64,000 nucleotides of DNA from Gemmatimonadota bacterium (GTDB lineage Bacteria > Gemmatimonadota > Gemmatimonadetes > Gemmatimonadales > GWC2-71-9), in assembly GCA_039586365.1 (NCBI GenBank), contig JBDHKN010000034.1, forward strand, positions 1 to 64,000, read 5' to 3'. The translations under genes were made by a program, and so were the position numbers. This document shows, piece after piece, positions 26,454-44,373 of this stretch. Positions within the stretch are counted from its first letter, which is position 1; the number at the start of each line of letters is the position of its first letter. Under the pieces are notes generated by a model. It had not been told where the DNA came from. It ran no database searches and saw only the letters and a list, made by a program, of their open reading frames with translations.

Positions 26454-26454
26454 C

Positions 26455-26889
26455 ATGGCCGACAATACGGTTGACCGACTCTTGGTTTTTCGGGTGGCTG
26501 AGCAGAACTATGCGGCTGTTGCTTCGGTTGTCCGTGAGATTCTCCCAGCTCAAAACGCTACGCGAATACCAGGTGCCACGGATTCCGTCAAGGGCTTGAT
26601 CAACGTGCGCGGCCGCCTGATCACCTTGGTCGATGGACGCAAGGCTCTCAGCCACCCACCTGACGGGGGTGATGGGCCAGTCGTTATCTTGGATGTGGGA
26701 GAGATAGCGGTTGGATTCGCGGTCGACACAGTCCTCGACTTTTGCTCCGTTTCCGCCGGTGATCTCACTGAGCGAGGGGAACTGCCCGGTATCGATCCTC
26801 GTCTGGTCCGAGCGGTGGGTCGCCAAGCCGATATATCTTTCGTGCTCCTCGACGTCGAGGCGTTACTGTCACCAATAATGGTTGCCTAG
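26455..26889 (+). CDS. cheW: CheW coupling protein
   Basis: VREI, TRIPGA, GLINVRG, GFAVD. Confidence 0.88.
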   Translation: MADNTVDRLLVFRVAEQNYAAVASVVREILPAQNATRIPGATDSVKGLINVRGRLITLVDGRKALSHPPDGGDGPVVILDVGEIAVGFAVDTVLDFCSVSAGDLTERGELPGIDPRLVRAVGRQADISFVLLDVEALLSPIMVA

Positions 26890-26901
26890 AGGGGGGAACG
26901 C

Positions 26902-27264
26902 GTGAGTCACTCAGTCCTCGTTTGCGACGACGCGATCTTCATGAGAACGATGATCAGCGACATCCTGTCTCAAGCGGGATACGAAGTTGTCGGAGAAGCT
27001 GAGACCGGGCTCCAAGCTGTTGCGAAGTACAAGGAGCTGAAGCCCGATCTCGTGACCATGGACATCGTGATGCCCGACATGGGTGGGATTGATGCGGTGC
27101 GCGAGATCGTTGCTCACGATCCCGATGCCTGTATTCTGATGTGTAGCGCCATGGGTCAACAGGCACTGGTTGTGGAGGCGATTCAGGCTGGTGCCAAGGA
27201 CTTCGTGGTCAAACCGTTTCAACCCTCTCGGGTCCTTGAGGCGGTGCAGCGGGTTCTCGGATAG
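26902..27264 (+). CDS. cheY: CheY response regulator (Bacillus/DifD-like)
   Basis: DDAIFMR, MDIVMP, CSAMGQQ, VKPF; single receiver domain. Confidence 0.93.
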   Translation: MSHSVLVCDDAIFMRTMISDILSQAGYEVVGEAETGLQAVAKYKELKPDLVTMDIVMPDMGGIDAVREIVAHDPDACILMCSAMGQQALVVEAIQAGAKDFVVKPFQPSRVLEAVQRVLG

Positions 27265-27266
27265 GC

Positions 27267-29126
27267 ATGGACCTGTCGCAATATGCGGAGTTATTCCTTG
27301 CCGAGAGTCGGGAACACCTAGGCACCATCAATCAACAGCTCCTTGAGTGGGAGCGCGTCCCGGAATCCGGCGAACCCGTCGGTGGCATATTCCGGGCGGT
27401 CCACACTATCAAAGGCATGGCAGCCACCATGGGCTATGCCGACGTCACCGATCTCGCTCACCGGATGGAGAACCTCCTCGACATCCTCCGCAGCGGTGAA
27501 CACGAGGCCACCGACCAGGTATTCGAGCTCCTGTTTCAGGCTGCGGATGCCCTCGACAAAGTAGTTGAGTCGTCGGTCTCAGGCAGGGAGTTGGATGCGG
27601 ACACGAGCGATGTGCTCGCGCGGCTCGACGCCACATGCCAGGCGTTGGTGCCGACGGCGAAACCCAGGCCGCCACCTGTCCCACGATCAGTGGATCCGCC
27701 ACAAGCCGCCGGAAAGTGGGTGCGCGTGGTAATCGATCCCAGCGCCACCCTCAAAGGTGCGCGGGCAGCAGTCGTTCTGAGGCGCCTGGAGCAGATTGGC
27801 CAGGTCAATACAGTGCAGCCACCGGCCACCGTTTTTGAAACTGAGGATTTCGACGGTGAGTTCGGACTCCGAATCGAAACCTCCGCTGACGATGAAGTCA
27901 TTGAGGAGCAGATCCGCGCGGCGGGAGACATCGCAGAGGTTTACGTCGGTAATGGTGCGGGAGACAGATTGGTCGAGCGGCCGGAGGCGCGGACACGGCA
28001 TATAAGGGTGGACCTCAGGCGCGTGGATGCAATGATGAACTTGGTGGGAGAACTGGTGACCACCAAAGATCGCCTGGCGCAACTCAGCGCCGGTCGGGGT
28101 GACCCGACGCTCGATGATGTCAGCCTCAAGATGTCTCACCTCACTACACAGCTGCAATCGGAGATTCTAGATGCCCGCATGACGCCGGTGTGGCAGGTGT
28201 TCGATCGTTTCCCAAGACTCGTCAGGGATCTATCCAAGCAGCTCGGTAAGGTGATCGAGTTCAAGGTCGAAGGGAAGGAGATAGAGCTCGATCGGGCGAT
28301 CTTGGATGAGATCGCTGATCCCTTGGTTCATCTACTGCGAAACGCGGTCGATCACGGGATTGAACCGGCGGCCGAGCGGGTGGCTGCAGGGAAGCCGCCG
28401 AGCGGCCACATCGTTCTGTCGGCCGTGCGCGAGCGAGCGACCGTCGCGATTCAGGTGAGCGACGATGGGCGGGGAATCGATCGAGCGAAGTTGCTGGCGG
28501 ATGCCAAGCGGACTGGTATGCTCGATGAAGACGTCGATGTGCTCAGCGACGAGTTGTTGTTACGGGTGCTGTCACGGCCTGGCTTCAGCACTGCTGCTGC
28601 AGTGTCAAATGTGTCGGGTCGTGGGGTCGGGATCGATGCCGTGGCCAGCAGTCTGCGAACTCTGGGTGGCGGACTCGAGGTGCTCAGTGTGCCGGGACAG
28701 GGGACGGTGTTCAGCTTGCGGCTACCCATAACACTGGCTATTGTGCGCGCGCTCACGGCTGAAGTTGGGGAGGAACGCTACCTTCTTCCCGTGACGCACG
28801 TTGCCGAGACAGTCGATCTGAGTGAAGAGACGACCACCAGCTTGGAGGGTGAAGATGCGATGCTCTTCAGGGGGGAGATGATCCCGCTGCTGGATCTTCG
28901 CAAGGTAGTGCAGCTGCCGGGAGAGGGGCATGGTCGACGACCGGTTGTGGTACTCCAAATTGGCGAGCGGAGGTCCGGTTTGGTGGTCGATGCTCTCACC
29001 GGTCAGCAGGAGATCGTGGTCAAGACCTTCGATGCACCGCGCGGCACATTACCCATCTTCAGTGGGGCGACAGTCTTGGGTGATGGATCGCCGGCCCTCA
29101 TTCTGGACACCGGCGGACTAGTGTAG
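27267..29126 (+). CDS. cheA: Chemotaxis histidine kinase CheA
   Basis: Hpt FRAVHTIKG, P2-like region, HLLRNAVDHG, SGRGVG, C-terminal CheW-like domain. Confidence 0.96.
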   Translation: MDLSQYAELFLAESREHLGTINQQLLEWERVPESGEPVGGIFRAVHTIKGMAATMGYADVTDLAHRMENLLDILRSGEHEATDQVFELLFQAADALDKVVESSVSGRELDADTSDVLARLDATCQALVPTAKPRPPPVPRSVDPPQAAGKWVRVVIDPSATLKGARAAVVLRRLEQIGQVNTVQPPATVFETEDFDGEFGLRIETSADDEVIEEQIRAAGDIAEVYVGNGAGDRLVERPEARTRHIRVDLRRVDAMMNLVGELVTTKDRLAQLSAGRGDPTLDDVSLKMSHLTTQLQSEILDARMTPVWQVFDRFPRLVRDLSKQLGKVIEFKVEGKEIELDRAILDEIADPLVHLLRNAVDHGIEPAAERVAAGKPPSGHIVLSAVRERATVAIQVSDDGRGIDRAKLLADAKRTGMLDEDVDVLSDELLLRVLSRPGFSTAAAVSNVSGRGVGIDAVASSLRTLGGGLEVLSVPGQGTVFSLRLPITLAIVRALTAEVGEERYLLPVTHVAETVDLSEETTTSLEGEDAMLFRGEMIPLLDLRKVVQLPGEGHGRRPVVVLQIGERRSGLVVDALTGQQEIVVKTFDAPRGTLPIFSGATVLGDGSPALILDTGGLV

Positions 29127-29136
29127 GAGAGACCGA

Positions 29137-29760
29137 ATGGAAGACTTGCGTCATCTCGAGTCGCTGCAACTCGATGCATTAAAGGAAGTGGCCAACATAG
29201 GGGCGGGTCATGCCGCCACAGCGCTGTCGCAGCTTACCGACCGTCGCATCATGATTGACGTGCCTGAGATCATGGTAACGGATCTGGACGGCCTCGCTGA
29301 CCTGTTGGTGGCCACTGACAGGGTCGTTGCAGCGGTGCTAATGCACATGCTCGGGGATCTCACCGGGCGCACCCTCCTCATGATCCCGGAGGAGAACGCG
29401 AAGCTCCTGTGCGATCTCCTGCTCAAGCGGGATCCAGGAACAACACAGTCATTCGACGAACTGGAGCGATCCGGCCTGAAAGAGGCGGGCAACATCCTTG
29501 GCGGGGCCTACATGAATGCCCTGTCCGACTTCATGGGAATGATGTTGCTGCCGTCGGTCCCCAGCCTAGCCATAGACCTCGCGTCAGCAGTCGTGACCAC
29601 AGCACATCTGAGCTTTGGGCGTGATCGCGACTACGTGTTCTGCGTCGAGACCGATTTCCACTTCGAGGAAGCTGACCGAAAGCTCAAGGGCCACTTCTTG
29701 TTGTTGCCCGACCTCGCCTCACTGAAGGAGATCCTCAAGGCCATCAGGTTGATGGGATAG
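29137..29760 (+). CDS. cheC: CheC phosphatase
   Basis: Two ExxN motifs: LKEVANIGAGHAATALS and LKEAGNIL. Confidence 0.93.
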   Translation: MEDLRHLESLQLDALKEVANIGAGHAATALSQLTDRRIMIDVPEIMVTDLDGLADLLVATDRVVAAVLMHMLGDLTGRTLLMIPEENAKLLCDLLLKRDPGTTQSFDELERSGLKEAGNILGGAYMNALSDFMGMMLLPSVPSLAIDLASAVVTTAHLSFGRDRDYVFCVETDFHFEEADRKLKGHFLLLPDLASLKEILKAIRLMG

Positions 29761-29764
29761 GGAG

Positions 29765-32437
29765 ATGTCATTAACCGAGAGAGATCATGATATTCTCCGG
29801 TCGCTAGCACGTTGCATCGATCCGTCCGATGCAGGTGCTCACAACAACCTCGGTGTACTCTACTACATGAAGGACCTGACGGCGGAAGCGGTGGAGCAGT
29901 TCGCTCGAGCGTTGGAGCTGGATCCCAGGATGCAGGTGGCCGAGCGCAACCTCGAGTTGGCTTACCGACGCTCAGGCCACTACAACGAGCAGGTGCGGGA
30001 ACTACGGAGGCAACTTCGGTCGGACCCGGAGAACCGTGATGCTCGTTGGGAACTGGGACGCGCTTACGCATCGCTGGCCCAATACGATGCTGCTGCGAGT
30101 GAGTTCCAGACGATTCTGTCTCGTGACCCCACCGACGTCGCTGCGATCGTGCAACTGGCGTTGGCCGAGAAGAAACTGGGGCAGTTGGAAACGGCGTCGG
30201 AATGGCTGGAGCGGGCGGCGGATCTTGATCCAGCGAGCAGTGTGGTGCGGTTCTATCTCGGTGAGGTGATGTATAACCGGGGGCTCAACGCAGAGGCGCT
30301 CGAGGCTCTGGAGCAAGCCGTAAAAGTCAGTCCCGATTACGCCGATGCCCATTACCTGTTGGCCTTTGTGCTGGGCGATATGGGGCGGCATGACGAGGCG
30401 CGCAAAGCGACCAAGCGGGCGATACAACTCAACCCTACCTATGGAAGGGCTCAGACGAACCTGTCAATTGAGCGGGTGACCGGTGAGAGTGTGGGCGCTA
30501 CTTCAGAGACACCGCAATCCGCGGGCGCCGACACCCACCAGGGCACTCTCGCTCACTACAATCTCGGCCGTGCCTTCCGACGGCAGGGTTACTACCAGGA
30601 GGCGCTGCACGAGTATCAATTGGCTTTGGACCGTGGCGAGGACCACTTCTTGGTTGAGCACGGCGTGGCTGAGGTCCACTTGCTGCGACGGGACTATGCC
30701 GGTGCCATTGAATTGTATGAAGTGCTGGTTGAGGCGTCTCCTGACTCCGCCAAACTGTGGAATGAACGTGGCGTCGTGCTGCATCAACTGGGCAGGTTCG
30801 AGGACGCAGTCGCATCTTATCGTCGCGCTGTCGAACTCACTCCGGCCTATACACTAGCCCACAACAACCTGGGGATAGCGCTGGCTCAGCAGGGGAGCCA
30901 CGACGACGCGTTGGCTGCCCTCTCTCAGGCTGCCGGCAGTGATCCCAAGCTGCCGGTTGCGCGACTCAATCTTGGTCTCCTGTTGCTCAAGCTCGGTAGG
31001 TTGGAGCTGGCGTTGGCGACGTTTCGGAAGCTGCTGGAGCAACATCCCGACACAGCTGGGGCGTGGAATGGGATAGGTCTCGTACTCAACGAACTGGGAC
31101 GACCTGAGGATGCCAGAAACGCCTTCGGTCGAGCTGTCGAAGCCGACTCGAATTCAGCTGAGGCGCACTACAATCTGAGCTTTGCTCTCTCGAAACTCGG
31201 TGACTATGACGGTGCTCTGCGGACTGTGACGCGTGCTCAGACGCTGGATCCTTACTACGTTCCTCAAAAGTTCAGACTGTCTATCGACCTGCAGTATGAG
31301 GATCCCGATCTATCTGTCGTACCAGAAATATCGGCCGACGTGATGGCCGAGACGACCAGCGCAATCAAGTTTGATCAGGGCCTGATTGACAATCTGTTCG
31401 CGGAACTCGACAGTGCGGCAAGACAGGAAATACCTGTCTCGACGTCCGATCCGCTGACGTTGGCACGGGATTATCTGGACAAGGGTCTGCTGGACTTGGC
31501 TGCTGCTGAAACGGACCGCGCGGCAAACCGGGGAGCGGATCCGGTAGATATGCAGATCCTGTCGGGACACATTTACGCGCGTCAAGGCCTGCACGGCGAG
31601 GCTTTGGAGCGCTACCGAGGGGCGAAGAGTGCGGACCCTGATAGTGCGGTTGCGCGGTTGGGCGAGATTCGTCAGCTGGTCGCACTCGGTAGAGGAGCCG
31701 AGGCAGTCGCCGACGCCGCTGCCCTGGCAAGTGAGCACCCCGACAACGTTGACGTACTGGTGGCACTGGCCGAAACACAACTCGCCGCTGGCGATCCCGC
31801 CAATGCGCTCGAGTACCTCAAGGAGGCCCGCGGACGAGCCCCGCAGCGAGCTGACATACTCAAGCTGGAAGGCGATATCGCTGTGGACATGGGCGATCTG
31901 GAGACTGCACAGCAAGCCTACGAGGGAGCCCTGGACCTGGAACCACGATTCGCGCAGGTCCGGCTGGACCTGGGGAAGCTGCACGAGGCCAGGAACGACC
32001 TGGTCGCCGCCGAGCGGTCCTACAGAGCGGCACTGGAGACTCTGCCTACCCTTTCTGAAGCCGCAATCGCACTGGCTCAGGTGTACCGGCGTGCGGGCCG
32101 CTCGCGGCTGGCCGTGAACCTACTGATCGAAGTGCTCCAGAATGATCCATCGGATCTGGAGACGCTGATCGGCCTGGGGCAGTCTCTGCTGGATGATGGC
32201 CGGGTAGAGCGGGCGCTTGAGGCGTTCGGGCGCGTACTGGCATACCAGAGCAACCACGCTGGTGCCCATTTCTATCTGGGTATGGCACTGGGCCGACAAC
32301 GCTGCTACACCGAGGCTATCGCGAGATGGCAGTCCGTGATTGCTCTGGAGCCGAACGGCCCATTTGCGCATGAGGCACGCAAACACATTCGCACAGCAAA
32401 CGACCTGCAGCACGTCTTCCCGACCACGGTGGCATAG
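29765..32437 (+). CDS. Large multi-TPR protein (890 aa)
   Basis: Many TPR repeats (AHNNLG, AHYNLG, AWNGIG); no signal peptide. Confidence 0.9.
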   Translation: MSLTERDHDILRSLARCIDPSDAGAHNNLGVLYYMKDLTAEAVEQFARALELDPRMQVAERNLELAYRRSGHYNEQVRELRRQLRSDPENRDARWELGRAYASLAQYDAAASEFQTILSRDPTDVAAIVQLALAEKKLGQLETASEWLERAADLDPASSVVRFYLGEVMYNRGLNAEALEALEQAVKVSPDYADAHYLLAFVLGDMGRHDEARKATKRAIQLNPTYGRAQTNLSIERVTGESVGATSETPQSAGADTHQGTLAHYNLGRAFRRQGYYQEALHEYQLALDRGEDHFLVEHGVAEVHLLRRDYAGAIELYEVLVEASPDSAKLWNERGVVLHQLGRFEDAVASYRRAVELTPAYTLAHNNLGIALAQQGSHDDALAALSQAAGSDPKLPVARLNLGLLLLKLGRLELALATFRKLLEQHPDTAGAWNGIGLVLNELGRPEDARNAFGRAVEADSNSAEAHYNLSFALSKLGDYDGALRTVTRAQTLDPYYVPQKFRLSIDLQYEDPDLSVVPEISADVMAETTSAIKFDQGLIDNLFAELDSAARQEIPVSTSDPLTLARDYLDKGLLDLAAAETDRAANRGADPVDMQILSGHIYARQGLHGEALERYRGAKSADPDSAVARLGEIRQLVALGRGAEAVADAAALASEHPDNVDVLVALAETQLAAGDPANALEYLKEARGRAPQRADILKLEGDIAVDMGDLETAQQAYEGALDLEPRFAQVRLDLGKLHEARNDLVAAERSYRAALETLPTLSEAAIALAQVYRRAGRSRLAVNLLIEVLQNDPSDLETLIGLGQSLLDDGRVERALEAFGRVLAYQSNHAGAHFYLGMALGRQRCYTEAIARWQSVIALEPNGPFAHEARKHIRTANDLQHVFPTTVA

Positions 32438-32439
32438 CT

Positions 32440-33594
32440 ATGGCGATCGAGGGCCCACTCAGAGAACTGGGCATTCACGACGTCTTTCAGTTACTCGATT
32501 TGAGTCGGAAGACCGGCAAGCTGACCGTGACGTCCAGACTGCGGCAAAACGGTGGCAGCGTGTTTTTCGAGCGAGGATCGGTCGTCTACGCTGAGATCGA
32601 AAGCAACCCGCATCTGCTGGGACGGCTGTTGGTGCAGTCGGGCAAGATCAACGAGGCTGATTTGAACAGAGCCCGCGATATGCAGCTGGAAGGAGACGAG
32701 CGGCGTTTGGGTGAAATCTTGGTGGACATCGGGGCGTTGACGGAGAAGGACCTAGAGAGACAGATGAGGTCCCAGATCGAAGAGGTTGTTTTTGAGCTCG
32801 TCGGCTGGCAGGAGGGCTACTTCTCCTTTGTTGAGGGTGAGCTGGCCGGCCTGGGTGCGGAAGCCAAGGTGCGGATCTCGACGGAGTCACTCTTGATGGA
32901 GGGCGCGCGCCGGATCGACGAGTGGTCGCGGATCGAGCGGAAGATCCCGCACCTGGGCGTCGTGCCGAGGTTCGCAGCGCGTAACCCGGAGCAGCCGGAA
33001 GGCTACCTCGATCTGCTGCCCTTTGAGTGGCAAGTCCTTGCGGCCGTCGACCATGAGCGGGACATCCGTGCGGTGGCTGTGAGTTTGGGCAGGTCCGAGT
33101 TCGAGGTGGCCAAGGCGGTGTTTGGTCTTGAGAGTGCCGGCCTTCTGGAGCTGGAGGAGCAGCCTGGGACTGCTGCTGTGGGGGGAGGGGCAGAGGAAGT
33201 GCGGGATGCCCTCCGGCGCGCAGAGGCTGCCATGGATGCTGGGGATCTGGCACAGTCCCGACGTTGCGCGGAGCTGGCCCGGACGGGGGCACCCCACGAT
33301 CCACTGGTCCACCTTATACTGGGTAAACTGGATCTGTCGGAACATCGTGCCGAGGCAGCTGAACAACACCTGCGCCGAGCGTTGCGGATCGATCCGATGC
33401 TCGTGGCCGCGCATCGACTGCTGGGCAACACGTTGGCGTTGCAGGGACGTTATTCCGAAGCGATCGAATGGTGGCAGCGGTGGATGACTCTCGGTGAGCG
33501 CACCGAGAAGGATGCCGCCGATGTTGAGCAAGTTGAAGAAGCGCTCAAGGCCGTAGAGCGTCTTGACACCATACTCGGAGGTGCACGTGGCTGA
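32440..33594 (+). CDS. DUF4388 (PATAN-like) + MshEN-like + TPR protein
   Basis: G.L.E....DVFQLL...RKTG.L; tandem (R/L)LG..LV..G motifs; LLMEGARRIDEW; C-terminal TPRs. Confidence 0.82.
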   Translation: MAIEGPLRELGIHDVFQLLDLSRKTGKLTVTSRLRQNGGSVFFERGSVVYAEIESNPHLLGRLLVQSGKINEADLNRARDMQLEGDERRLGEILVDIGALTEKDLERQMRSQIEEVVFELVGWQEGYFSFVEGELAGLGAEAKVRISTESLLMEGARRIDEWSRIERKIPHLGVVPRFAARNPEQPEGYLDLLPFEWQVLAAVDHERDIRAVAVSLGRSEFEVAKAVFGLESAGLLELEEQPGTAAVGGGAEEVRDALRRAEAAMDAGDLAQSRRCAELARTGAPHDPLVHLILGKLDLSEHRAEAAEQHLRRALRIDPMLVAAHRLLGNTLALQGRYSEAIEWWQRWMTLGERTEKDAADVEQVEEALKAVERLDTILGGARG

Positions 33595-34381
33595 TGATAT
33601 CCGGACGTTGAGCTCCGAGCTGGCTCGGGATCCTGACAGCCTGGTGTTTCTCGAGTTGGGTGAGGTGCTGAGGTCAAGGGGGCAGCTATACCTCGCAGCC
33701 AAAGTCGCCGTGACAGGTTTGGAGCGCCATCCACGACTGGCCGATGCCCACGACCTTTACGCTCGGATCCTAGCTGACATGGGACATCCTGAGCAGGCGC
33801 AGGAGGAGTGGTCACTCGCGCTTGGTATCGACCCAAGACACTGCGGGGCTCACAAAGGACTGGGTTTCCTGGCCTACCGGTGGGGCGACCTCGACAAAGC
33901 ACTAGAGCATCTGGAGTGGGCGCTCGCCACGGATCCGTTGGATTCGAGCGTGGTAGAGGCGCTCAGGATGGTCCGACGCACTGCCGAGGAATCAGCGGCT
34001 ACGGTTTCTGGAGCCGAGCTTCCGCCGGTCTTCGCGGGATTGGAGGGGGCAGAGCACGGCCTCTTGTTGTTGGACACCAGGGGACGCGTCTTGGCCGGAG
34101 GGATGAAGAGCGTGACTGGTGCCGACGTGTCAAACGACGTGGCAGCCTACGTAGCGGGAGGCGCTCAGGAGGCTGAGCGCACCTCGCGGATACTCGAGCT
34201 GGGGGATTGGCAGTGGATGGTGATAGAAGGATCCGCGGGAAACCTCCATATCAGCCGTCCCGAGACCGAGGCAGCGCTGTTGGTAGCTCGTGACCGCAGC
34301 GTTCCGTCCGGCAGGCTATCGATCTTGGCCGACCGGGCTACCAGAGTTGCCAAAGCGTGGATCGAGGCACAGGAGCCGTGA
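33587..34381 (+). CDS. TPR + Roadblock/LC7-like fusion protein
   Basis: N-terminal TPRs; C-terminal GLLLLDTRGRVLAG...LGDWQWMVIEG roadblock pattern; GGAGG before GTG 33587. Confidence 0.7.
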   Translation: MADDIRTLSSELARDPDSLVFLELGEVLRSRGQLYLAAKVAVTGLERHPRLADAHDLYARILADMGHPEQAQEEWSLALGIDPRHCGAHKGLGFLAYRWGDLDKALEHLEWALATDPLDSSVVEALRMVRRTAEESAATVSGAELPPVFAGLEGAEHGLLLLDTRGRVLAGGMKSVTGADVSNDVAAYVAGGAQEAERTSRILELGDWQWMVIEGSAGNLHISRPETEAALLVARDRSVPSGRLSILADRATRVAKAWIEAQEP

Positions 34382-34728
34382 CCGAGCGATTGCGGCAGTC
34401 ACTGGACAAGATCACGCGGGTTCGCGGTGTGCGGGGAGCGCTCTTGGTGACCGGGGACGATGGTCTGATCGTGGCAGACGCCGTAATGGACAGTGTGCGT
34501 GGTGACGCGGTAGCGGCTCTCGGGGCAAACTTGGCCACGCGCATGGCGAAGACGTGCGAATGCTCCGGAGTTGGCAGCCTGCAGTTTGTCCATCTCCAGT
34601 CGGTCCAGGGGACCCTCTTGGTCATGCCTTTGGCCGAGGAAGTGGTCCTGGTGGTCATCGGCGACAAGGACATCAACGTCGGCTTGGTCAGGCTGGAGAT
34701 GCAAGGCATGTCGGAGGCGGTGCCGTGA
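34378..34728 (+). CDS. Roadblock/LC7 domain protein
   Basis: GVRGALLVTGDDGLIV, AVAALGA, NVGLVRLEM. Confidence 0.85.
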   Translation: MTERLRQSLDKITRVRGVRGALLVTGDDGLIVADAVMDSVRGDAVAALGANLATRMAKTCECSGVGSLQFVHLQSVQGTLLVMPLAEEVVLVVIGDKDINVGLVRLEMQGMSEAVP

Positions 34729-35195
34729 TCCCGACCCGGTCGATCGAGCCGTGGATCAAAGAGCCGCTGGAGCGGTTCGTCGCCGAGGCTGGAGCCAGGC
34801 TGACGTTGATCATGACTACTGCTGGTCAAGTGCTTGCCCAACATGGGTTTACGCGTGCGGTTGACGTCATGGCAGCGGCTGCGCTGGGCGCGGCGATCCA
34901 CTCGTCAACGAGGGAGATCGCGCGGGCTGTTGGGGAGAGCGAGTTCAAGGCGCTCAATCATCAAGGGATCAGACACGGTATCTACCTAGCGGAGATGCAG
35001 ACCCCACGGGGAAGGCTCTTGGCCCTGGTCGTGTACGGTACCGAATCCTCGGTGGGACTGGTGCAACTCTTTTACGAGGATCTGGTCCGCGATCTCAGTA
35101 AGGCGTGTCCGCGAGAAGAGAGGAAGAAACCTGTCATCGCATCTAACTTCGAACGGGAGCTGGATGAGAGTCTCGCTTCACTTTTTCGGCGGTGA
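34725..35195 (+). CDS. mglB: MglB-like Roadblock protein (putative MglA GAP)
   Basis: AGQVLAQHG, AAALGAA...EIARAVGESEF..LNHQG, SVGLVQL; immediately upstream of mglA. Confidence 0.75.
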   Translation: MIPTRSIEPWIKEPLERFVAEAGARLTLIMTTAGQVLAQHGFTRAVDVMAAAALGAAIHSSTREIARAVGESEFKALNHQGIRHGIYLAEMQTPRGRLLALVVYGTESSVGLVQLFYEDLVRDLSKACPREERKKPVIASNFERELDESLASLFRR

Positions 35196-35198: not shown

Positions 35199-35798
35199 GT
35201 GTCACTAGTCAACTTCACCACACGCGAAATCACCTGTAAGATCGTGTACTATGGACCGGGACGATCGGGTAAGACGAGCAACCTCCAGTATATCTATGGC
35301 CGCGTGCCGGAGAATCGGCGCGGCAGGATGGTATCGTTGGCGACTCAGACCGACCGTACTCTCTTCTTCGATTTCTTGCCCCTGGAACTGGGCTCGATTT
35401 CCGGCTTCGCGACGCGGTTCCAGCTGTACACTGTCCCGGGTCAGGTTTATTACAACGCCACTCGCAAGTTGGTACTGCAGGGTGCGGATGGGGTCGTATT
35501 CGTGGCTGACAGCCAGGCTCGCCAGCTCGATGAAAACGTGGAGAGCCTGCAGAACCTCCAGGCAAACCTACTTGACCAAGCCGTAGACATCCGTGAACTG
35601 CCCATGGTCCTGCAGTACAACAAGCAGGATCTCCCGTCGGATCTCATTCTGACCCCTCAGGAGCTGGACGACGCCATCAACTTCCGAGGCGTGCCTAGTT
35701 TTCCTGCTGACGCCTTGAGGGGTGGTGGAGTGTTCGAGACTCTCAAGGGAATATCTGAGCAGTTGTTGCGCAAACTGAGTGAGGAATCTCCGACGTGA
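35199..35798 (+). CDS. mglA: MglA small Ras-like GTPase
   Basis: KIVYYGPGRSGKT, DRTLFFDFLP, LYTVPGQ, VFVADS, NKQD. Confidence 0.95.
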   Translation: MSLVNFTTREITCKIVYYGPGRSGKTSNLQYIYGRVPENRRGRMVSLATQTDRTLFFDFLPLELGSISGFATRFQLYTVPGQVYYNATRKLVLQGADGVVFVADSQARQLDENVESLQNLQANLLDQAVDIRELPMVLQYNKQDLPSDLILTPQELDDAINFRGVPSFPADALRGGGVFETLKGISEQLLRKLSEESPT

Positions 35799-37753
35799 CG
35801 ACCGAGCTCAACCCCGGAATGACCTTCGAGAGCTTTGCGGTAGGGCCAGGTAATCAGTTAGCGGTGACTGCGGCTCGAGCTGTGGCGGAACGGCTCGACG
35901 GAGCTTACAGCCCACTCTACATCCATGGGGGAGGAGGGCTCGGCAAGACACACCTACTCATAGCGATCGGACATGTGGCGGCCGAGGCGTTTCCCCCCCG
36001 GGTGGTGGAGTACTTCACGCCGAGTCGCCTAGCCGAGGCCTTCAATGCGGCGGCTTCAGCGGGCCAGAGTGAAACGTTCCGCAATCTGCTGGCCGACGTC
36101 GACGTATTGTTGATCGACGATGCGCATCTTTTCGAGCGAAGGCAGGGCGCAAACACTGAGCTCCAGAGATTGACGCAGGACATCTTGGTTGAGGGGAGGA
36201 ACCTCGTTCTTGCTGGCCATGTTCCACCCGGCGAAATCGACGGCCTGCGCAGGGAACTCGTAACGGCCTTGTCACAGGGACTAGTTGTTGAGATCGAACC
36301 GCTTGATTACGAAACGCGGTTGGCCATTTTGCAGCGCCGGGCGGAGAGCCGCGCTTCAGGCCTGGATCAGACTGTGCTGGCAGCGGTCGCCGAGTTCAAT
36401 ATCACCACTGCCAGAGAGTTGATCGCATTGCTCAATCGGCTGATCGCACTGGATGCGGTAAGTGAGACTCGGTTGATGCCTGATGCAGCAAGAGCGCTGT
36501 TAGAGGGAGAAGCACTTGCACTGGACGGGCGGCGTCCGGTACCATCGGTGGGTGGGGCAGAGACCCAGCGAGACGAGTTCGCGGACTTCCTGTCCGAAGT
36601 GAGTGTCGCGGTCCAACAGCAGATCGAGGGGTGGGAGACGGACGTTCGGGATGCGATTGAGCGGTGGGGCCGTGAAGGTTTCGACACGAAGAGGCTGGAA
36701 GGGCTTCTCACGCAGAGTAATCCGATGCCGGTTGAGGCAACCATAGTGGAGTTCGAGCGAGACGTCCAGCAACTCCGAACCCTCCGTGAATCTGTTGCGG
36801 CAACCGATCCCACCCAGGCGGATGATCCGGTATTCTGTGATCCCGACCGGGTATCGGAGGCACACATATTGGCCGAGAGTATCGTGCCGGCTGTGGAGCT
36901 ACCTCCCGGTCCCTCGTCTGCCTGGACCTTCGACAGTTACATCGAGACAGAAGGCAACAGAGCGGCCAACCAGGCCGTGCACGAGGTAGTGGATTCGCCA
37001 GTATCGGCGCACAATCCGCTCGTAATCGTGGGAGCGACCGGAGTGGGGAAGACACACCTCCTGCATGCACTGGGGAGCGGTCTGAGCGAGCATCTCGCCA
37101 TGCCGGTAGCCTGTCTTTCCGGGCAGGAGTTCCACACCCTGGCCAGGAGCGCGGTCGAAGAGAATGCGCTTGAGGCCTTCGGGTCGCTGTTTGATCGGGC
37201 GGGTGCGCTGCTGATTGACGATATACACATGCTGGTGGGGCATGAGCGATCTCAAGAAGAACTGTACAGGATTGTCTCAGTGCTCATAGGGACATCCCGG
37301 CAAGTCGCATTCACCGTCAGTTCTGACCCTGCCGAGATCGACGGTCTCACCGCACAGCTGAGGCAGTGCATTGACGGTGGCAGGCAGGTGGTGTTGACGT
37401 CACCCGACCGTGAATTGCGACGCCGCTTGGTGCAGCGGGTGCTGCGGGATCGGGTGGGAGAAGCCGATCCTGAACTGCTGGATTACTTGGCGGATCGACC
37501 GGCTGAATCAGTGCGGGTGGTGACGGGCCTAGCCCAGCGGATAGTCGACTCCGCGGACGGCCAAGGCTTGCCGCCTAGTGCGGCTCTCGCCCGTCAGCTG
37601 ATCGAAGGGGCCCTCCCCAAGGTGGAGCGAGTGTCTCGAGGGATGCGAACCAGTGGGGTCATGGTTTCGCTGGCGAGCGGCGTCAAGAGTCGCGAGAAGA
37701 TGATCTGGAACTGGCCCGATCCGGGAGAGCGGCTGATAGAGGAACTTTCGTAG
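35795..37753 (+). CDS. Tandem DnaA/Hda-type AAA+ domain protein without DNA-binding domain
   Basis: Two copies of TF..F/Y...N..A, PL.I.G..G.GKTHLL, LLIDD; no DnaA domain I or IV. Confidence 0.85.
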   Translation: MTTELNPGMTFESFAVGPGNQLAVTAARAVAERLDGAYSPLYIHGGGGLGKTHLLIAIGHVAAEAFPPRVVEYFTPSRLAEAFNAAASAGQSETFRNLLADVDVLLIDDAHLFERRQGANTELQRLTQDILVEGRNLVLAGHVPPGEIDGLRRELVTALSQGLVVEIEPLDYETRLAILQRRAESRASGLDQTVLAAVAEFNITTARELIALLNRLIALDAVSETRLMPDAARALLEGEALALDGRRPVPSVGGAETQRDEFADFLSEVSVAVQQQIEGWETDVRDAIERWGREGFDTKRLEGLLTQSNPMPVEATIVEFERDVQQLRTLRESVAATDPTQADDPVFCDPDRVSEAHILAESIVPAVELPPGPSSAWTFDSYIETEGNRAANQAVHEVVDSPVSAHNPLVIVGATGVGKTHLLHALGSGLSEHLAMPVACLSGQEFHTLARSAVEENALEAFGSLFDRAGALLIDDIHMLVGHERSQEELYRIVSVLIGTSRQVAFTVSSDPAEIDGLTAQLRQCIDGGRQVVLTSPDRELRRRLVQRVLRDRVGEADPELLDYLADRPAESVRVVTGLAQRIVDSADGQGLPPSAALARQLIEGALPKVERVSRGMRTSGVMVSLASGVKSREKMIWNWPDPGERLIEELS

Positions 37754-39372
37754 TGGCTATCAAAGGCAGTCTCAAGGAAGCGTCCCTCCCAGACGTGCTC
37801 CAACTGCTATCGCTCGGGCGCAAGACGGGCTGTCTGTCCGTTTCAGACCGTTCAAGCCTGGGGTACGTCTTCTTCGATGCAGGCCGAATCATATACGCCA
37901 CCGTTGTCAACAGGCGCGACAGGCTCGGGGACATACTCCACAAGAGCGGCAGGATCACGCAGAAACAGCTGGACGAAGCCGTACGACTGCAGGACGCGGG
38001 TCGCGACAAGAAGTTGGGAGAGATCCTGGTTGAAACCGGGGCTATCTCGCAATCTGAGTTGGAGCATTGCGTGCGGCTGCAGATAGAGGAAGCTGTCTTC
38101 TTTCTGTTCACATGGCGGCGCGGGAGCTTCACTTTTGAGAGCGACGTCCGACCGCACCGTCAGGATTACCTGGTCTCCATCGATCCTGAGGCTCTCCTCT
38201 TGGAGGGAGCACGGCGGATTGACGAGTGGAGCCTCATCGAGAAGAAAGTCCCCTCTTTTGACCTGGTGTTCCAAACTGACGAGGAGCGCCTGATGTCCTC
38301 CGACGCTTCCCTGTCGGAAGCGCAGCAGCGCATTGCACCCCTACTGAACGGCAGCCGCGACCTATTCGCAGTGATCGAAGAGACCGGGCTCGTAGAGTTC
38401 GAGGTCGGCAAGGCGCTTTACGGACTTCTGACCGCTGGCTTCGTTCACCAGGTAGGCCGCAAAGCAGCGGAGCGGCGGCGCGAGGTCTCTGGGGTCCGTA
38501 TCGATGAGCACAGGAACCTCGGCATCGCGTTCTATCGCACCGGGATGCTAGATGAGTCGTTGCGTGAGTTCCGTCGAGTGGTTGAGCTGGGGCCGTCGGA
38601 CGGGGGTGCCTACTTTTACCTCGGCCTCATCTACTTCAAGCAGGCGCAGTGGCAGCAGGCGATCGAAGCGTTCAAGCAGGCAGTGGAGAAAGGTGGATCA
38701 CAGCCGTCAATACTCTATAACTTGGCGCTCAGCTACGAGAAAGCCGGGATGCTCGCCGAAGCGGAGGAGGCCTATGCCGACTCGGCGACTCGAGCACGTC
38801 GGGATTCACGCGTCCTGACAGGTTGGGGGCTGGTGGCCTTGCACCGCAGTGACTTCGAAGTGGCAGAGGGCCGGCTCGACCGGGCACGTGAGGTGACCGG
38901 TGGCGAGGGCATGAGTGCCATCTGGTACTGGGCTCGCTCACTGGCAGCTGGGGCTCAGGAGGACTACGATTCGGCGGAACGCATCTTGAGAGAAGGTGTA
39001 GAGCTGTTTCCCGAACATGCTGTGCTGCGAAACAACCTGGGAGCCCTACTTGAATTGCTGGGCCGAGTCGACGAAGCCGAGGAGCTTTTGAAGACGGCGC
39101 TGGCAGACGAACCGAGCGTCCCGCAACTGTCGAAGAATCTCGGTGATCTCCACTACCGGAGCGGCCGCTACGACGAAGCGTGGGATGCCTATCAACGCGC
39201 AGTCAAGCTCCAGCCCGAGTTGGGCGACGATGTGTATTTCAAGCTGGGCAACATCGCGTACAAGCGGCAAGATCGCGAGCTCGCAACCACCTGCTGGCAC
39301 AAGGCTCTTGAGCTGAACCCGATTCACGAGTTGGCTCGCACGAACCTAGAGACTGTGAGCGCCCTTAAGTGA
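37753..39372 (+). CDS. DUF4388 (PATAN-like) + MshEN-like + TPR protein
   Basis: Paralogue of 32440-33594 (MAIKGSLKE, RKTG, LLLEGARRIDEW); RLGDIL and KLGEIL motifs; multiple TPRs. Confidence 0.85.
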   Translation: MAIKGSLKEASLPDVLQLLSLGRKTGCLSVSDRSSLGYVFFDAGRIIYATVVNRRDRLGDILHKSGRITQKQLDEAVRLQDAGRDKKLGEILVETGAISQSELEHCVRLQIEEAVFFLFTWRRGSFTFESDVRPHRQDYLVSIDPEALLLEGARRIDEWSLIEKKVPSFDLVFQTDEERLMSSDASLSEAQQRIAPLLNGSRDLFAVIEETGLVEFEVGKALYGLLTAGFVHQVGRKAAERRREVSGVRIDEHRNLGIAFYRTGMLDESLREFRRVVELGPSDGGAYFYLGLIYFKQAQWQQAIEAFKQAVEKGGSQPSILYNLALSYEKAGMLAEAEEAYADSATRARRDSRVLTGWGLVALHRSDFEVAEGRLDRAREVTGGEGMSAIWYWARSLAAGAQEDYDSAERILREGVELFPEHAVLRNNLGALLELLGRVDEAEELLKTALADEPSVPQLSKNLGDLHYRSGRYDEAWDAYQRAVKLQPELGDDVYFKLGNIAYKRQDRELATTCWHKALELNPIHELARTNLETVSALK

Positions 39373-40181
39373 ACAAGAGGCGGCGCGATCCCGACCTCGC
39401 CGCTCTGGTTGAAAAGATTGCTCGGGAACGCCACTTCGGCTTCGACGCATACAAAGAGGGTTGTCTCAGGCGACGTGTGGCAGTTCGCATGAGAGTAAGA
39501 GGCGTGACGACCTATGAGGAGTACGCTGAACTACTGGATCGCGATACGAACGAATACGAGAGTCTCCTGGACACCCTCACTATCAATGTCACCAAGTTCT
39601 ACCGTAACAGAGAGACCTGGGAAGCGTTGGCTCGGAACCAGCTTCGGGCCCTGCTACGATCGCGGGGAGGCCAGGTCCGGTGCTGGTCGGCAGGGTGTGC
39701 GTCCGGTGAGGAACCGTTCACACTGGCGATATTACTGTTCGAGACGGCAGCACATGAGCGACTCACAGCGACGGCGATTCAAATCGACGCTACCGATTTC
39801 GACTCAAACAGCCTTAACCGTGCTCGCCGTGGCGAGTACAGCAAGGCCGCGTTCGACGAAATGCCAGCGGACTTGGCTCGGCGGTACTTCAGTGATGGTA
39901 GCGTTAGGGTGGTCGACCAACGAATCAGCGGAACCGTACGGTTCCGTCGCCACGACATCACCAGAGAGCCACCACCGGAGCCGCCATACGACTTGATTAT
40001 GTGCCGGAATGTGCTGATCTATTTTGATCGCGCTACTCAGGATCGCTTAGTATCCCAGTTCATAGGGGCTCTGCGGCCCGGAGGCTACTTGGTATTGGGA
40101 AGGGCAGAGACGATACTTGGTGACCTCCGTGAGTGCGTGAAATTGGAGGATCCGCGTGAGCGCATCTATCGGCGGCCATGA
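39369..40181 (+). CDS. cheR: Protein-glutamate methyltransferase CheR
   Basis: TINVTKFYR, WSAGCASGEEP, CRNVLIYFD, GGYLVLG. Confidence 0.93.
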   Translation: MNKRRRDPDLAALVEKIARERHFGFDAYKEGCLRRRVAVRMRVRGVTTYEEYAELLDRDTNEYESLLDTLTINVTKFYRNRETWEALARNQLRALLRSRGGQVRCWSAGCASGEEPFTLAILLFETAAHERLTATAIQIDATDFDSNSLNRARRGEYSKAAFDEMPADLARRYFSDGSVRVVDQRISGTVRFRRHDITREPPPEPPYDLIMCRNVLIYFDRATQDRLVSQFIGALRPGGYLVLGRAETILGDLRECVKLEDPRERIYRRP

Positions 40182-40672
40182 GTGAGGGTCCGGCAGAGAC
40201 CCTGGTGCGTCTCGGTGCCCTTGAGGTGACTGATCAAGCAGACACCCTCATGGCGTTGGGGTTGGGCAGCTGTGTGGCCGTGATCCTTCATGATCCCAAG
40301 GCGAAGGTAGGCGGTCTCGCCCATATCCTCCTGCCATCTCAGTCGTTGTCGCGTGACAGTACGAATTTCGCACGGTCCGCCGATACGGCTGTGCCGCGTC
40401 TCCTTCAATTGATGCACGAGCGCGGTGCGACCCGCAGTCAGGTTGTGGCGCGACTAGTTGGCGGAGCGAGCATGTTTGCCGATTTGCTGGCTGCCGGCAC
40501 GGTCCATATTGGTGAGCGAAACGTCAATGCATGTAGGCTGAGCCTACGTCGGGCGGGGGTGCCCATAGTAGGAGAAGCGGTCGGTGGCCAGAAGAGCCGC
40601 TCAGTCTGGCTCGACGTGGGACGGGGTACAGTCACCGTACGCACGGTGGGTGGTGAGCCGACAACTATCTAG
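40178..40672 (+). CDS. cheD: Chemoreceptor glutamine deamidase CheD
   Basis: LGLGSCVAV, GGLAHILLP, GGASMF, IGERN. Confidence 0.92.
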   Translation: MSEGPAETLVRLGALEVTDQADTLMALGLGSCVAVILHDPKAKVGGLAHILLPSQSLSRDSTNFARSADTAVPRLLQLMHERGATRSQVVARLVGGASMFADLLAAGTVHIGERNVNACRLSLRRAGVPIVGEAVGGQKSRSVWLDVGRGTVTVRTVGGEPTTI

Positions 40673-41732
40673 TTCACAAGCCACTGTCCTCGTAGTGGAC
40701 GACAGCGCCTTCATGCGACGCATATTGGCGGATGCCATCTCCGAGTCCGATAGCTTCAGGCTGGCTGGTACGGCCCGGGACGGTGTCGACGCCATTGAGA
40801 AGGTGAACAGGCTCGAGCCAGATCTCGTAACGATGGACATCGAAATGCCGAGGCTCGGTGGGTTGGATACGATAGAGAGAATCATGCAGGAGAGTCCTCG
40901 ACCCATTGTTGTAGTAAGTGCTCATGCAGGGTTGGGTACGGCCGCGGCCATCAAAGCTCTTGAGGTGGGAGCGGTTGAGGTCGTTGCCAAACCGAGCGGG
41001 CGAGATCCCGCAGGTCTCGCCGTGATGGTTTCGTCCATGATGGCCGCTCTCACCGCGGCCGCAATGGCAGTCGTAGAGCGGACACCGCCAATATCCGTCG
41101 ACCGAGAGATCTTGTATGCCCAGGCGCATTCTGGTCGCAAGCCGCGCCATGCACGAGCTGCGGTGGCTATTGCGGCCAGCACAGGAGGTCCCCGTGCGCT
41201 CACGCAGCTGGTGCCCGCGATACCCTCGGGTCTGGGTCTTGGTACCCTCGTGGTCCAACACATGCCCGCAGGGTTTACCAAGAGCTTGGCGCAACGGCTG
41301 CATGAGTTGAGCTGCTTGACCGTCGTGGAAGCTGAGGATGGTATGGAGGTTCTGGCCGACACGGTGTACGTAGCACCCGGCGACCATCATATGCGGGTGG
41401 CCGGCCCAGACGGCCTGCTGATACGGTTGGATCGCGACACTCCCGTGTGGGGTGTGCGACCGGCGGCCGATCCACTGTTCTACTCAGTGGCGGCGCACTT
41501 TGGCCCGCGGGCGGTGGGTGTGGTGCTGACAGGCATGGGGCGAGACGGTGCTGCCGGTCTCAAGGCGATAAGAGATGCTGGGGGGAGGGGAGTCGTGCAA
41601 GACCAGGCCACCTCGGTGGTGTTCGGTATGCCAAAGGCCGCTATTGATGCAGGTGGTGCTAACGCGATTGAGCCTTTGTCGGGACTCGCGTCCGCGGTCA
41701 CTAGGTTTGTTACAAGCGAGGGAGGTCATTGA
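40653..41732 (+). CDS. cheB: Chemotaxis methylesterase CheB
   Basis: Receiver domain (VDDSAFMR, MDIEMP) plus ASTGGP, QHMP, GMGRDG; start approximate. Confidence 0.93.
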   Translation: MSRQLSSSQATVLVVDDSAFMRRILADAISESDSFRLAGTARDGVDAIEKVNRLEPDLVTMDIEMPRLGGLDTIERIMQESPRPIVVVSAHAGLGTAAAIKALEVGAVEVVAKPSGRDPAGLAVMVSSMMAALTAAAMAVVERTPPISVDREILYAQAHSGRKPRHARAAVAIAASTGGPRALTQLVPAIPSGLGLGTLVVQHMPAGFTKSLAQRLHELSCLTVVEAEDGMEVLADTVYVAPGDHHMRVAGPDGLLIRLDRDTPVWGVRPAADPLFYSVAAHFGPRAVGVVLTGMGRDGAAGLKAIRDAGGRGVVQDQATSVVFGMPKAAIDAGGANAIEPLSGLASAVTRFVTSEGGH

Positions 41733-42157
41733 AGGGTTATCTCCGCGTTCGCGCAGAGGGCACACACTACGGCCTACGGGTGGATCAGGTGCTCGAAGTA
41801 GTAGACGGGTTCGAGCTGCGTCGGGTACCGGCCACACACGAATCAGTGCGCGGTGTCACTCCGTTGCGAGGACGGCTAGTACCGCTGATTCAACTAGCCG
41901 CGCTCCTGGGTGATCGGCCACCACCGCCCACTCTTGGTGGAACCGCTGTGCTGGTGCGGTGTTCCGGATTGGTGGTGGCCTTCGAGGTGGACGATGCGGA
42001 GGAGCTCGTTGCGGAGAATCCCCTCCCTGTCCCGGACGTCTGGCGGCTTCCCTGGGCGTCAGGTGTGGGGCGCTATCGCGGGGACCTCATACCAATCATC
42101 GATCTCGAGATTCTGGCAGGGCGATTGATGCCTGGACGCGAGGGTACTGGGGAATGA
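41729..42157 (+). CDS. cheW: CheW-like protein
   Basis: YGLRVDQVLEV, RGVTPLRGRLVPLI, AFEVD. Confidence 0.8.
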   Translation: MKGYLRVRAEGTHYGLRVDQVLEVVDGFELRRVPATHESVRGVTPLRGRLVPLIQLAALLGDRPPPPTLGGTAVLVRCSGLVVAFEVDDAEELVAENPLPVPDVWRLPWASGVGRYRGDLIPIIDLEILAGRLMPGREGTGE

Positions 42158-42630
42158 GCGTGGGTGACGAGATCCAGTTGGTGACCTTTCGCCTCGGCGG
42201 GCATGAGCTTGCGTTCAACGTTTTCGAGGTAGAGCGAGTGTTGCGGTACGAGGGACCCACTCCACTGCCGGATTCCCCAGATTATCTCCTGGGGACTCTC
42301 CGCTACGGTAGCGAGGTGGTGCCGGTAGTCGATCTGCGAAAGCGGCTCCGAGTGCCCGCTACCGTGGAGGATGTTACCAGGATCATTGTGGTTCAGTGGG
42401 AACATGGAAGACTCGGAGTAGTGGTTGATGCGGTGCTCGAAGTCACCAAAGTGTCCGCCGACGAAATCGTACCACCACCGCAATTCGTGAAGGGACTTGC
42501 GGCTGAGTGCGTTGGGGGTATCGTGTCGGCGGGCGACCGGACAATAGTCGTACTCGCGGTGGCAAGGCTGCTCGCGTCCAACGAGCAGCTGAAATTGGAC
42601 ACTCTGATGGCGGAGATACCCCATGGGTGA
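42154..42630 (+). CDS. cheW: CheW coupling protein
   Basis: QLVTFRLG, VVPVVDLRKRL, GVVVDAV.EV. Confidence 0.88.
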   Translation: MSVGDEIQLVTFRLGGHELAFNVFEVERVLRYEGPTPLPDSPDYLLGTLRYGSEVVPVVDLRKRLRVPATVEDVTRIIVVQWEHGRLGVVVDAVLEVTKVSADEIVPPPQFVKGLAAECVGGIVSAGDRTIVVLAVARLLASNEQLKLDTLMAEIPHG

Positions 42631-43486
42631 ACCGATTGTTGCCCAAATGCGGGCCCTTTACAACGAGATCGTTCAGAACCTAGAGGCGGTGCGGTCCGGT
42701 GGTGATAGAGAGGCGGTCAAGCACGACATCATCGCTCTGTTCAAGACAGTCGATCAGGGCATAACAGACCTCACCGAGCTGAAGGAAGACATTAGGGTCC
42801 TGGTCGAGAAATACAAACAGCTAGCCCAGAGCACGAGCGGAGACCGGGCGCCAGAGTTCACGGGGGCTGTTCCCGCCGTCAGGGTCGACCACATCGGTGC
42901 TTCGACTTTCATCGAGAAGGGGTGGAGCCTCATCTCACTGGGGGATTATCCCGGTGCGCTACTGGCCCTGAACAAGGCGCTGTCGCTGTCACCCGGCGAT
43001 GTGCAGGCTGAGTCGTTGCTCGGCTGGGCACAGATGCTCAACGAAGACTACGATGATGCGCTGGCGACCTTTCAGCAGGTTCTCATGAAAGAGCCGGCCA
43101 ATTCCTTGGCTCGTATCAACGTTGGCTACATCTGCCTGAAGAAGGGCATTTTCGGGGAAGCGATCGAGCACCTTTCCAAGGCCATTAGGTTGGACAATGA
43201 CAAGAAGGCGACGTTGTATGCGCACTTCTACTTGGGCTTGGTGTACCTCGAGCGGGACATGTACGAGGATGCGCAGACGTTCTTTGAGAAGACACTCAGG
43301 CTCGGGCCGAATTTAGTCGAAGCGTACTACGAGCTCGGGCGCGCGCAGTGGTTCGCCGGGGACCGGGAAGGAGCGAAGGGTACCTGGGCCAGCGGATACA
43401 AGACCAACAAGTTCAACTCTTGGGGCAAACGTTGTAAGGAGACCCTCAATTTGGTAGAGCGAGGACAGGAGCCACCACGTTCGTAG
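42623..43486 (+). CDS. Coiled-coil + TPR protein
   Basis: N-terminal helical/coiled-coil segment, then about 5 TPRs. Confidence 0.85.
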   Translation: MGEPIVAQMRALYNEIVQNLEAVRSGGDREAVKHDIIALFKTVDQGITDLTELKEDIRVLVEKYKQLAQSTSGDRAPEFTGAVPAVRVDHIGASTFIEKGWSLISLGDYPGALLALNKALSLSPGDVQAESLLGWAQMLNEDYDDALATFQQVLMKEPANSLARINVGYICLKKGIFGEAIEHLSKAIRLDNDKKATLYAHFYLGLVYLERDMYEDAQTFFEKTLRLGPNLVEAYYELGRAQWFAGDREGAKGTWASGYKTNKFNSWGKRCKETLNLVERGQEPPRS

Positions 43487-44340
43487 CAGCGCTTCTCGTA
43501 GCCCTGCTGTCGCAGGACCCATCACTTGTCAGTGTCGGGCGAGCGAGTGCGGTTTTTTGGCCAGGTGATGAGTCGGGTGCGACGATCCTGGCTGAAATGG
43601 CTGACAAAGCCGGTCCTTGGCCGGGAATACCCAGTGTTTCAGAGCGGCGGGTCCGTCTGATCATCGCTCCAGACGACCAACGGTTTGACTCGCTCACCAG
43701 CAGTCGTCTGCCAGAGTGGGGTGGCGGAGCGGCGTTCCCGGGTTCGAACACGATCGTGCTGAAGCTCACCGGTGACGTGCGCAGGGTGCTGCGGCACGAG
43801 CTGGCCCATCTCGCGCTGCACAGTGTCGTCAAGCGAGTTCCCTTGTGGTTTGATGAGGGGTACGCGGCGTGGGCGTCTGGTGAGTGGGACCGTGTGAGGG
43901 CATTACGGGTAAACTGGGCGCTCCTGACTGGTGCCTCTCCTACCTTGCGGCAAGTCGAAGCAGACTTGAGGGGCAGCGTGGCCGGCGCTGAAACGGCCTA
44001 TGCGCTGGCGATGACCGCGGTGCTGCTATTGGAGCATTTGGGTGGTGACCGCGGGCTAGAGCCGTTGATCGCCAACCTGGCCGACACCCCCGATTTCGAT
44101 CGGGCGCTGCGGATCACCAATCAGATGACTCTGGGACAATTCGAGGAACTGTGGCGTCGCGAGTTGCGCACTCGCTACGGGTGGGTACTGTTTTTCGGAT
44201 CTGTGACAGTGTTCTGGGCCGTGTTGGCGCTTGTGCTCACGAGTTTATGGTGGTGGCGCCGCCAGCGGGACCGGGATCGGCGGGCGGCTCTTGACGAAGG
44301 GTGGGTCGTTCCGCTAGATGAATGGGACGCAAGTGCTTGA
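43477..44340 (+). CDS. Membrane-anchored HExxH zinc peptidase-like protein (clan MA); start uncertain
   Basis: RHELAH + PLWFDEG, C-terminal TM; frame open upstream of ATG 43597 through a signal-like hydrophobic stretch. Confidence 0.7.
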   Translation, partial: TFVAALLVALLSQDPSLVSVGRASAVFWPGDESGATILAEMADKAGPWPGIPSVSERRVRLIIAPDDQRFDSLTSSRLPEWGGGAAFPGSNTIVLKLTGDVRRVLRHELAHLALHSVVKRVPLWFDEGYAAWASGEWDRVRALRVNWALLTGASPTLRQVEADLRGSVAGAETAYALAMTAVLLLEHLGGDRGLEPLIANLADTPDFDRALRITNQMTLGQFEELWRRELRTRYGWVLFFGSVTVFWAVLALVLTSLWWWRRQRDRDRRAALDEGWVVPLDEWDASA

Positions 44341-44365: not shown

Positions 44366-44373
44366 GAGTGTCT

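Follow-up and report, generated by a model that had tools for sequence, protein, structure and literature searches.

The window analysed here, a 64,000-nucleotide stretch of a Gemmatimonadota contig, holds 18 closely packed genes with gaps of 12 nt or less, the eleventh of which (35795..37753) encodes a 652-aa protein that Pfam, alignment of its two halves and a structural model identify as a tandem paralogue of DnaA domain III. All genes and features placed by coordinates in this operon lie on the + strand. The run opens with cheW, cheY, cheA and cheC (26383..29760), the cheA being the only one found in the assembly, and continues with genes for a long, 890-aa TPR protein and a DUF4388-TPR protein other than the one downstream of the target (29765..33594, from Pfam), then with TPR-Roadblock, Roadblock and mglB-like Roadblock genes (33587..35195) and an mglA-type small GTPase gene (35199..35798), these last assigned by family models. 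The GTG start of the target and the stop of mglA share an overlap of 4 nt, and the target's stop overlaps by 1 nt the start of a second DUF4388-TPR gene (37753..39372), which encodes a 539-aa DUF4388(PATAN)-MshEN-like-TPR protein. The remaining genes are cheR, cheD, cheB, two cheW genes and a gene for a 287-aa TPR protein (39369..43486, from Pfam).

Beyond the operon, positions 43597-49705 carry a peptidase MA gene, tRNA-Val (44569-44643), a TPR gene, tRNA-Asp (46454-46527) and then rsmH- and ftsI-like genes named from their sequence; in many relatives the operon lies a short way upstream of the division/cell-wall cluster. A second mglA paralogue, 50% identical, is encoded outside the operon (G000:C97:137350-138021), and many relatives retain one. 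In-frame TGA flags in such second copies proved to be ordinary stops in the five that we read.

A doubled DnaA motor distinct from DnaA and Hda

Pfam places two Bac_DnaA (PF00308) stretches in the target protein and, at E<=0.01, no match to DnaA_N (PF11638) or Bac_DnaA_C (PF08299), both of which are found in the genome's own DnaA. The two halves are 32% identical (E 9e-21). Walker A reads GGGGLGKT in the N copy (aa 5-243; 35807..36523) and GATGVGKT in the C copy (aa 375-604; 36917..37606), Walker B is LLIDD in both, and sensor II is R207 and R574, respectively, so that an earlier sequence-only reading, which described two domain-III copies with these elements and no domain I or IV, is borne out. 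The sensor I Asp is replaced in both copies (H142 and S509). At box VII, where enterobacterial DnaA has RLKSRF, alignment puts E154 and A158 of the N copy (36254..36268) on R260 and R264 of B. subtilis DnaA, and Q521 and C525 at the equivalent positions of the C copy (37355..37369), whose arginine-finger face is eroded.

An AlphaFold2 model built from a 94-sequence alignment (mean pLDDT 87, pTM 0.48) predicts two AAA+ domains, a helical domain at residues 261-363 (36575..36883) and a low-confidence tail at 607-652; at this pTM the orientation of the two ATPase copies to each other is not fixed. By fold, the model comes closest to DnaA domain III (PDB 8BV3, E 2e-18, rmsd 1.9, 34% identity). The stretch between the copies, first described as an acidic helical linker, is indeed acidic (27 D/E versus 12 K/R over residues 241-370), but most of it is predicted to be a folded domain, with a pLDDT of about 90. 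For this helical domain, no single Pfam family was matched by more than 3 of 70 members; a search of PDB sequences gave nothing below E 0.05, Foldseek nothing at E<=0.001 and the Atlas no hit. Its best structural match (Z 6.4) was to generic helical bundles. None of this in itself shows a new fold.

The target shares with the DnaA initiator (PDB 8BV3, 8BTG and 2Z4R) the AAA+ fold, Walker A/B and sensor II, and most of its orthologues also retain box VII. It differs in its doubled domain III, its additional helical domain and tail, the absence of domain I (domain III begins at residue 5) and the absence of the domain IV helix-turn-helix; no paralogue matched the genome's own DnaA domain IV. The finger and sensor I residues missing from the target (A158/C525 and H142/S509) are present in 21/21 DnaA controls, and the eight residues that PMC6669920 gives as essential for the B. 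subtilis DnaA filament are reduced to three in the N copy and two in the C copy. The DnaA family model TIGR00362 reached 334 bits from the two copies, under its cut-off of 343.9, and in a quick tree the target falls apart from DnaA. Nor does it lie beside dnaN: a canonical dnaA, which the sequence-only reading had said should be sought elsewhere, is found with dnaN on another contig (G000:C125:19833-22555), and this dnaA and the target's two copies account for the only three PF00308 matches in the 86%-complete genome.

Like Hda/HdaA, the regulators acting in RIDA, the target is a DnaA-clade AAA+ protein without a DNA-binding domain. Hda is described (PMC5397184) as having an N-terminal clamp-binding motif (QLSLF / QLSLPL) and an essential box VII arginine finger, whereas the target has two AAA+ copies, no N-terminal clamp motif and no finger, the latter being present in most orthologues. 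The clamp motif pattern occurred in 2/107 genome paralogues and 1/120 homologues, in each case internal and unconserved. The Hda model TIGR03420 scored 138.4 bits against a cut-off of 194.8, and in a PDB profile search the target was nearer DnaA than Hda (287 versus 56 bits). With no DNA-binding domain, no clamp motif and dnaA-dnaN elsewhere, the earlier view that the protein is neither initiator nor Hda holds. We also considered the IstB, DnaC and DnaI loaders and set them aside: their family models scored far below cut-off, and the context is che-mgl without a transposase or primosome.

Arginine fingers and the two copies across the family

The N and C copies of 95 two-domain orthologues, taken from genomes, were aligned with 21 DnaA controls; 54 of the orthologues come from the target's own family, 33 from the rest of its order and 8 from two more families, with the target genome included. 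L008 (broken 5' end), L116 (an N run and, close to the tail, a frameshift) and L140 (N copy shortened) were left out, and nine forms that have a single domain or are partly degenerate make up a separate count. An arginine occupies the finger position in 79/95 N and 91/95 C copies, in 8/9 of the single forms and in all DnaA sequences (21/21), and the Walker A K is present in 95/95 N and 89/95 C copies. Among the 34 nearest homologues (those of 52.5% identity or more, query included, among the best 120 database homologues), the finger is found in 0/34 N copies and 9/34 C copies; both fingers are lost in 25 of these 34, compared to 7 of the other 86. Both are present in 79 and lost in 3 of the 94 other genome proteins. 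In the quick tree, N copies and single forms make up one supported group and C copies another, both apart from DnaA, and the target's genus is placed with a single neighbouring genus, in which the fingers are lost as well. Arginine loss is thus confined to the target's lineage, and we rejected it as a family trait. The sequence-only reading was right that both copies of the target lack the box VII arginines, but its argument from the missing fingers fails for the family. It had named two observations that would tell against it: orthologues that retain the fingers and act like Hda, the first half of which is what we find in most of them, and a sporadic, decaying gene, which is not what we find, as the gene is conserved. 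Its broader suggestion of a repurposed nucleotide switch or scaffold stands, given this conservation and the lack of a DNA-binding domain or clamp motif. Separately, seven loci (L128, L129, L131-L134 and L136) form a group of their own within the target's family, with a fast-evolving N copy whose finger is displaced or lost and a C copy that retains it.

The two copies have kept different parts of DnaA. We divided the eight filament-essential residues into two faces, following their order in the figure legend of PMC6669920. Sensor I is found in 82/95 N copies versus 27/95 C copies and the F218 equivalent in 74/95 versus 10/95, whereas the R206 equivalent is found in 5/95 N copies versus 77/95 C copies and the H231 equivalent in 1/95 versus 45/95. 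The R202 equivalent is present in 88/95 C copies, and the C-copy equivalents of R202, R206, R264 and L269 are each present in 77-91 of the 95 orthologues; the C copy of six f7 proteins lacks canonical Walker A and B, yet both arginines are present. Family-wide, then, the N copy retains the ATP-site face and the C copy the arginine-finger face. The simplest inference from these residue patterns is a single composite site in which the C finger would act on ATP held by the N copy. In most relatives the finger face of the C copy would complete the ATP site of the N copy, either within its own chain or on the next one, and such a site could provide an ATP-dependent clustering switch. Both DnaA-like contact faces are eroded in the target's clade (F218 in 0/34 and G317 in 2/34 N copies; R206 in 1/34 and L269 in 0/34 C copies), where the catalytic pairing would have been lost and the protein may act as a nucleotide-bound scaffold.

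Two motifs, mini-proteins and the downstream neighbour

We compared 127 loci, one per genome and chosen for holding the gene or its partner, and found a DUF4388-TPR gene or a TPR-only homologue directly downstream of the target family in 127/127, the TPR-only homologue accounting for six loci from genomes of other classes. The sequence-only reading had coupled the protein to mglA, which is directly upstream in 102 of the 126 loci that can be judged; that linkage is conserved, but it is weaker than the downstream one and separable, with cheA and mglA lying away from the target-partner pair in 12 f7 loci and the operon split between mglA and the target in G290. The downstream protein, our inferred partner, carries an MshEN-like c-di-GMP motif (NF053729, 45.7 bits versus a cut-off of 38). 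Its PATAN domain recalls the cyanobacterial PATAN regulators PixE and PixG, but is combined with an MshEN-like insert and TPRs where the cyanobacterial proteins have a receiver domain. Among the PDB matches listed, an SgmX-like identity for the partner found generic TPRs only and was dropped, and a supposed link between SopA and DUF4388 was discarded as wrong on checking.

Several loci vary in their surroundings. In family f7 (L081-L085), a gene for peptidase MA and one for a sigma-54 response regulator come after the pair in place of cheR-cheD-cheB; in two other classes (L095-L098) a single-domain form sits after a dapF-like gene, named from its sequence, and before the TPR-only gene; and in G045 a GGDEF response regulator, a cheR-TPR gene and two cheW genes lie just downstream.

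Two short motifs about 350 residues apart in the full-length protein outlast the ATPase. Motif 1 is a helix, E-F-x-x-F-L (aa 260-277; 36572..36625), and motif 2, E-K-x-x-W-x-W-P-x4-R (aa 634-652; 37694..37750), ends the low-confidence tail of the model. In eight genomes the target's slot is occupied by an ORF of 60-73 aa that consists of motif 1 and motif 2, with both ATPase domains deleted; profile comparison matched the two motif pieces to the family at E 9e-9 and 3e-9 (probability 96% each), and two further genomes outside the mini profile's training set match most of the profile. Of 100 matches in a library clustered at 50% identity, 35 were proteins of 62-94 aa with both motifs; these were identified from their sequences alone, and one of them is the mini-protein of G133. 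Single-domain forms keep motif 2; six forms from other classes have no clear motif 1, and two partners aligned from these have no DUF4388. In the partner tree the mini-proteins nest among two-domain carriers, indicating that the mini form is derived; the tree gives two changes, although one origin is also possible, and the genome minis, coming from one or two events, amount to few independent observations.

The partner changes along with the ATPase. Its last TPR (501-535) is present in 54/54 and 2/2 partners of ATPase-bearing forms and in 0/8 partners of minis, and its c-di-GMP insert (residues 57-106) is cleanly deleted in seven of the eight mini genomes, the insert-less partners (L148-L154) forming one branch. 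Three mini genomes (L148, L149 and L151) retain the whole che-mgl operon; two have no operon mglA and mglB, and two have no cheA. Of the genomes in our panel (below), 34 lack the partner, and these yielded no second DnaA-like match and no clear mini match with a profile that misses divergent tails.

The nearest homologues agree without exception (34/34) at eleven motif positions, whereas their fingers, sensor I and interface residues have eroded. Conservation of the tail must be read with care, as its final EE codons contain GAGGA (37739..37743), which codon counts mark as the likely Shine-Dalgarno site of the next gene: the first E is GAG in 91/92 compared to a background of 77% elsewhere. 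Conservation of the final EE is therefore confounded, at least partly, by the ribosome-binding site, and a short ORF could persist partly for translational coupling. However, motif 2 is also conserved upstream of the EE (E 96/99, W 79/99, P 84/99 and R 89/99), its codons varying wherever synonymous ones exist, and motif 1 is retained about 40 residues before the stop in the 35 divergent minis; both observations indicate that selection acts on the peptide. The reduction to two motifs, rather than the missing arginines, is the striking feature of this family, and deletion of the ATPase while the motifs persist suggests docking as the core job.

Two further observations concern these short forms. 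Three library proteins (P0295, P0296 and P0323) resemble the TPR-Roadblock protein of the operon at their start and carry motif 1 and the tail at their end, apparently as natural fusions that deleted the intervening genes and again retained both motifs. In G133, five or six tandem 15-bp repeats (L155:8985-9092) lie between the mini ORF and the start of the DUF4388-TPR gene.

Candidate roles

The 86%-complete assembly contains one cheA, five MCPs and PilB; a flagellin match was found neither there nor in a single-contig genome of the same genus. Across a panel of 80 hand-picked genomes, which include related and so not independent ones, PilB scored over the cut-off in 44 of 46 carriers versus 12 of 34 non-carriers, and flagellin in 12/46 versus 5/34. 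In Synechocystis, both PilB1 and PilC are binding partners of a PATAN domain (10.1101/2021.06.11.447907). From this binding and the PilB distribution, type IV pili are the likely output of the operon. The operon shares chemosensory genes, MglA, Roadblock proteins and TPR scaffolds with the Frz-MglA/MglB-SgmX system of Myxococcus xanthus, and PATAN genes near some mglA genes are described in PMC4316618. It differs in gathering everything in one operon; no DnaA-like component was found in the passages and abstracts consulted, and there was no SgmX-specific match among the PDB matches listed.

Taking the domain content, residue patterns, gene order and deletion series described above as observed, we infer binding, for which the support is genomic, motif-domain pairing, ATP use and pilus output as follows. 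With a probability of roughly one half, the protein is a DnaA-derived adaptor that docks by its two motifs on the PATAN-TPR scaffold of a chemosensory-MglA, probably pilus-steering, system. The linker helix and the W-P-x4-R tail would likely dock on the neighbouring scaffold, the tail perhaps on its TPRs and the helix on its PATAN domain; against this, the motifs could bind another conserved protein. Residues that contact ssDNA in DnaA are retained in the C copies of many orthologues (I/V190 in 76/95, K222 in 60/95); docking does not explain them, and they count against the adaptor. If the adaptor proposal is correct, motility signalling has taken over a DnaA motor domain, and a deletion analysis has been carried out by evolution itself, from two copies to one copy, dead copies and a form of 60-73 residues, pinpointing residues worth testing and offering a tiny natural tool for the function of a PATAN-TPR scaffold from a widespread, little-studied phylum.

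It is unlikely that the protein instead regulates DnaA from its TPR tether, the C finger being offered to DnaA-ATP in the manner of Hda or the N copy capping the DnaA filament, so that replication would be tied to polarity. The genome has no separate Hda-like gene among its three PF00308 matches, and the retained finger-face residues of the C copy, including those of the f7 proteins that have no canonical Walker A and B, are what such a regulator would need; the same residues, however, are accounted for by pairing of the C copy with the N copy. The clamp-binding motif is missing, both faces are eroded in the target's clade, eight genomes have deleted the ATPase and the 34 panel genomes without the partner show no second DnaA-like match. 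A DnaA-capping factor, as the sequence-only reading had proposed, is accordingly unsupported for the target, whose clade has eroded the contact faces and whose relatives discard the ATPase; for orthologues that keep the arginines it may still apply.

An active AAA+ remodeller, whose hydrolysis would build or dismantle the PATAN-TPR-MglA or a chemoreceptor complex while the motifs only recruit it, seems rather improbable. It would fit the near-invariant Walker A K, the mostly retained fingers and the partner's last TPR, which tracks the ATPase, but fingers and sensor I are lost across the target's clade, and relatives with a full che-mgl operon (L148, L149 and L151) have lost whole ATPase domains. 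DnaA-clade ATPases are not known to act as protein remodellers.

A broader and decidedly doubtful scenario has the initiator motor taken over ahead of the split between the Gemmatimonadota classes and used as a switch that is tethered to a pole and pairs with DnaA. Controlled by MglA, c-di-GMP and chemosensory input, the scaffold would hold at one pole an Hda-like finger that needs no clamp, or a filament cap, and lineages that lost the link would retain a docking peptide of 60-70 residues; if true, replication initiation would be linked to motility polarity. Finally, it is very improbable that the gene is a decaying relic kept mainly for translational coupling from mglA to the DUF4388-TPR gene, as the overlapping stops and starts, the Shine-Dalgarno site in its last codons and the repeated domain losses might suggest, since the frame is open in all 150 matches listed, Walker A/B are invariant in the 34 nearest homologues wherever covered, the tail E, W, P and R are retained with mixed codons and motif 1 persists in 35 divergent minis.

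A literature search, with most subscription papers outside it, found no description of the protein or the cluster, which apparently are undescribed; a gene-neighbourhood table in PMC4316618 may list the locus. In a scan of the genome collection beyond the phylum, matches were confined to domain III and the strong ones fell with DnaA; the source labels listed for family members are Gemmatimonadota groups and Ca. Glassbacteria. Databases label proteins of the target family 'DnaA' or 'DnaA/Hda', names to be read with caution, and the mini form is readily overlooked.
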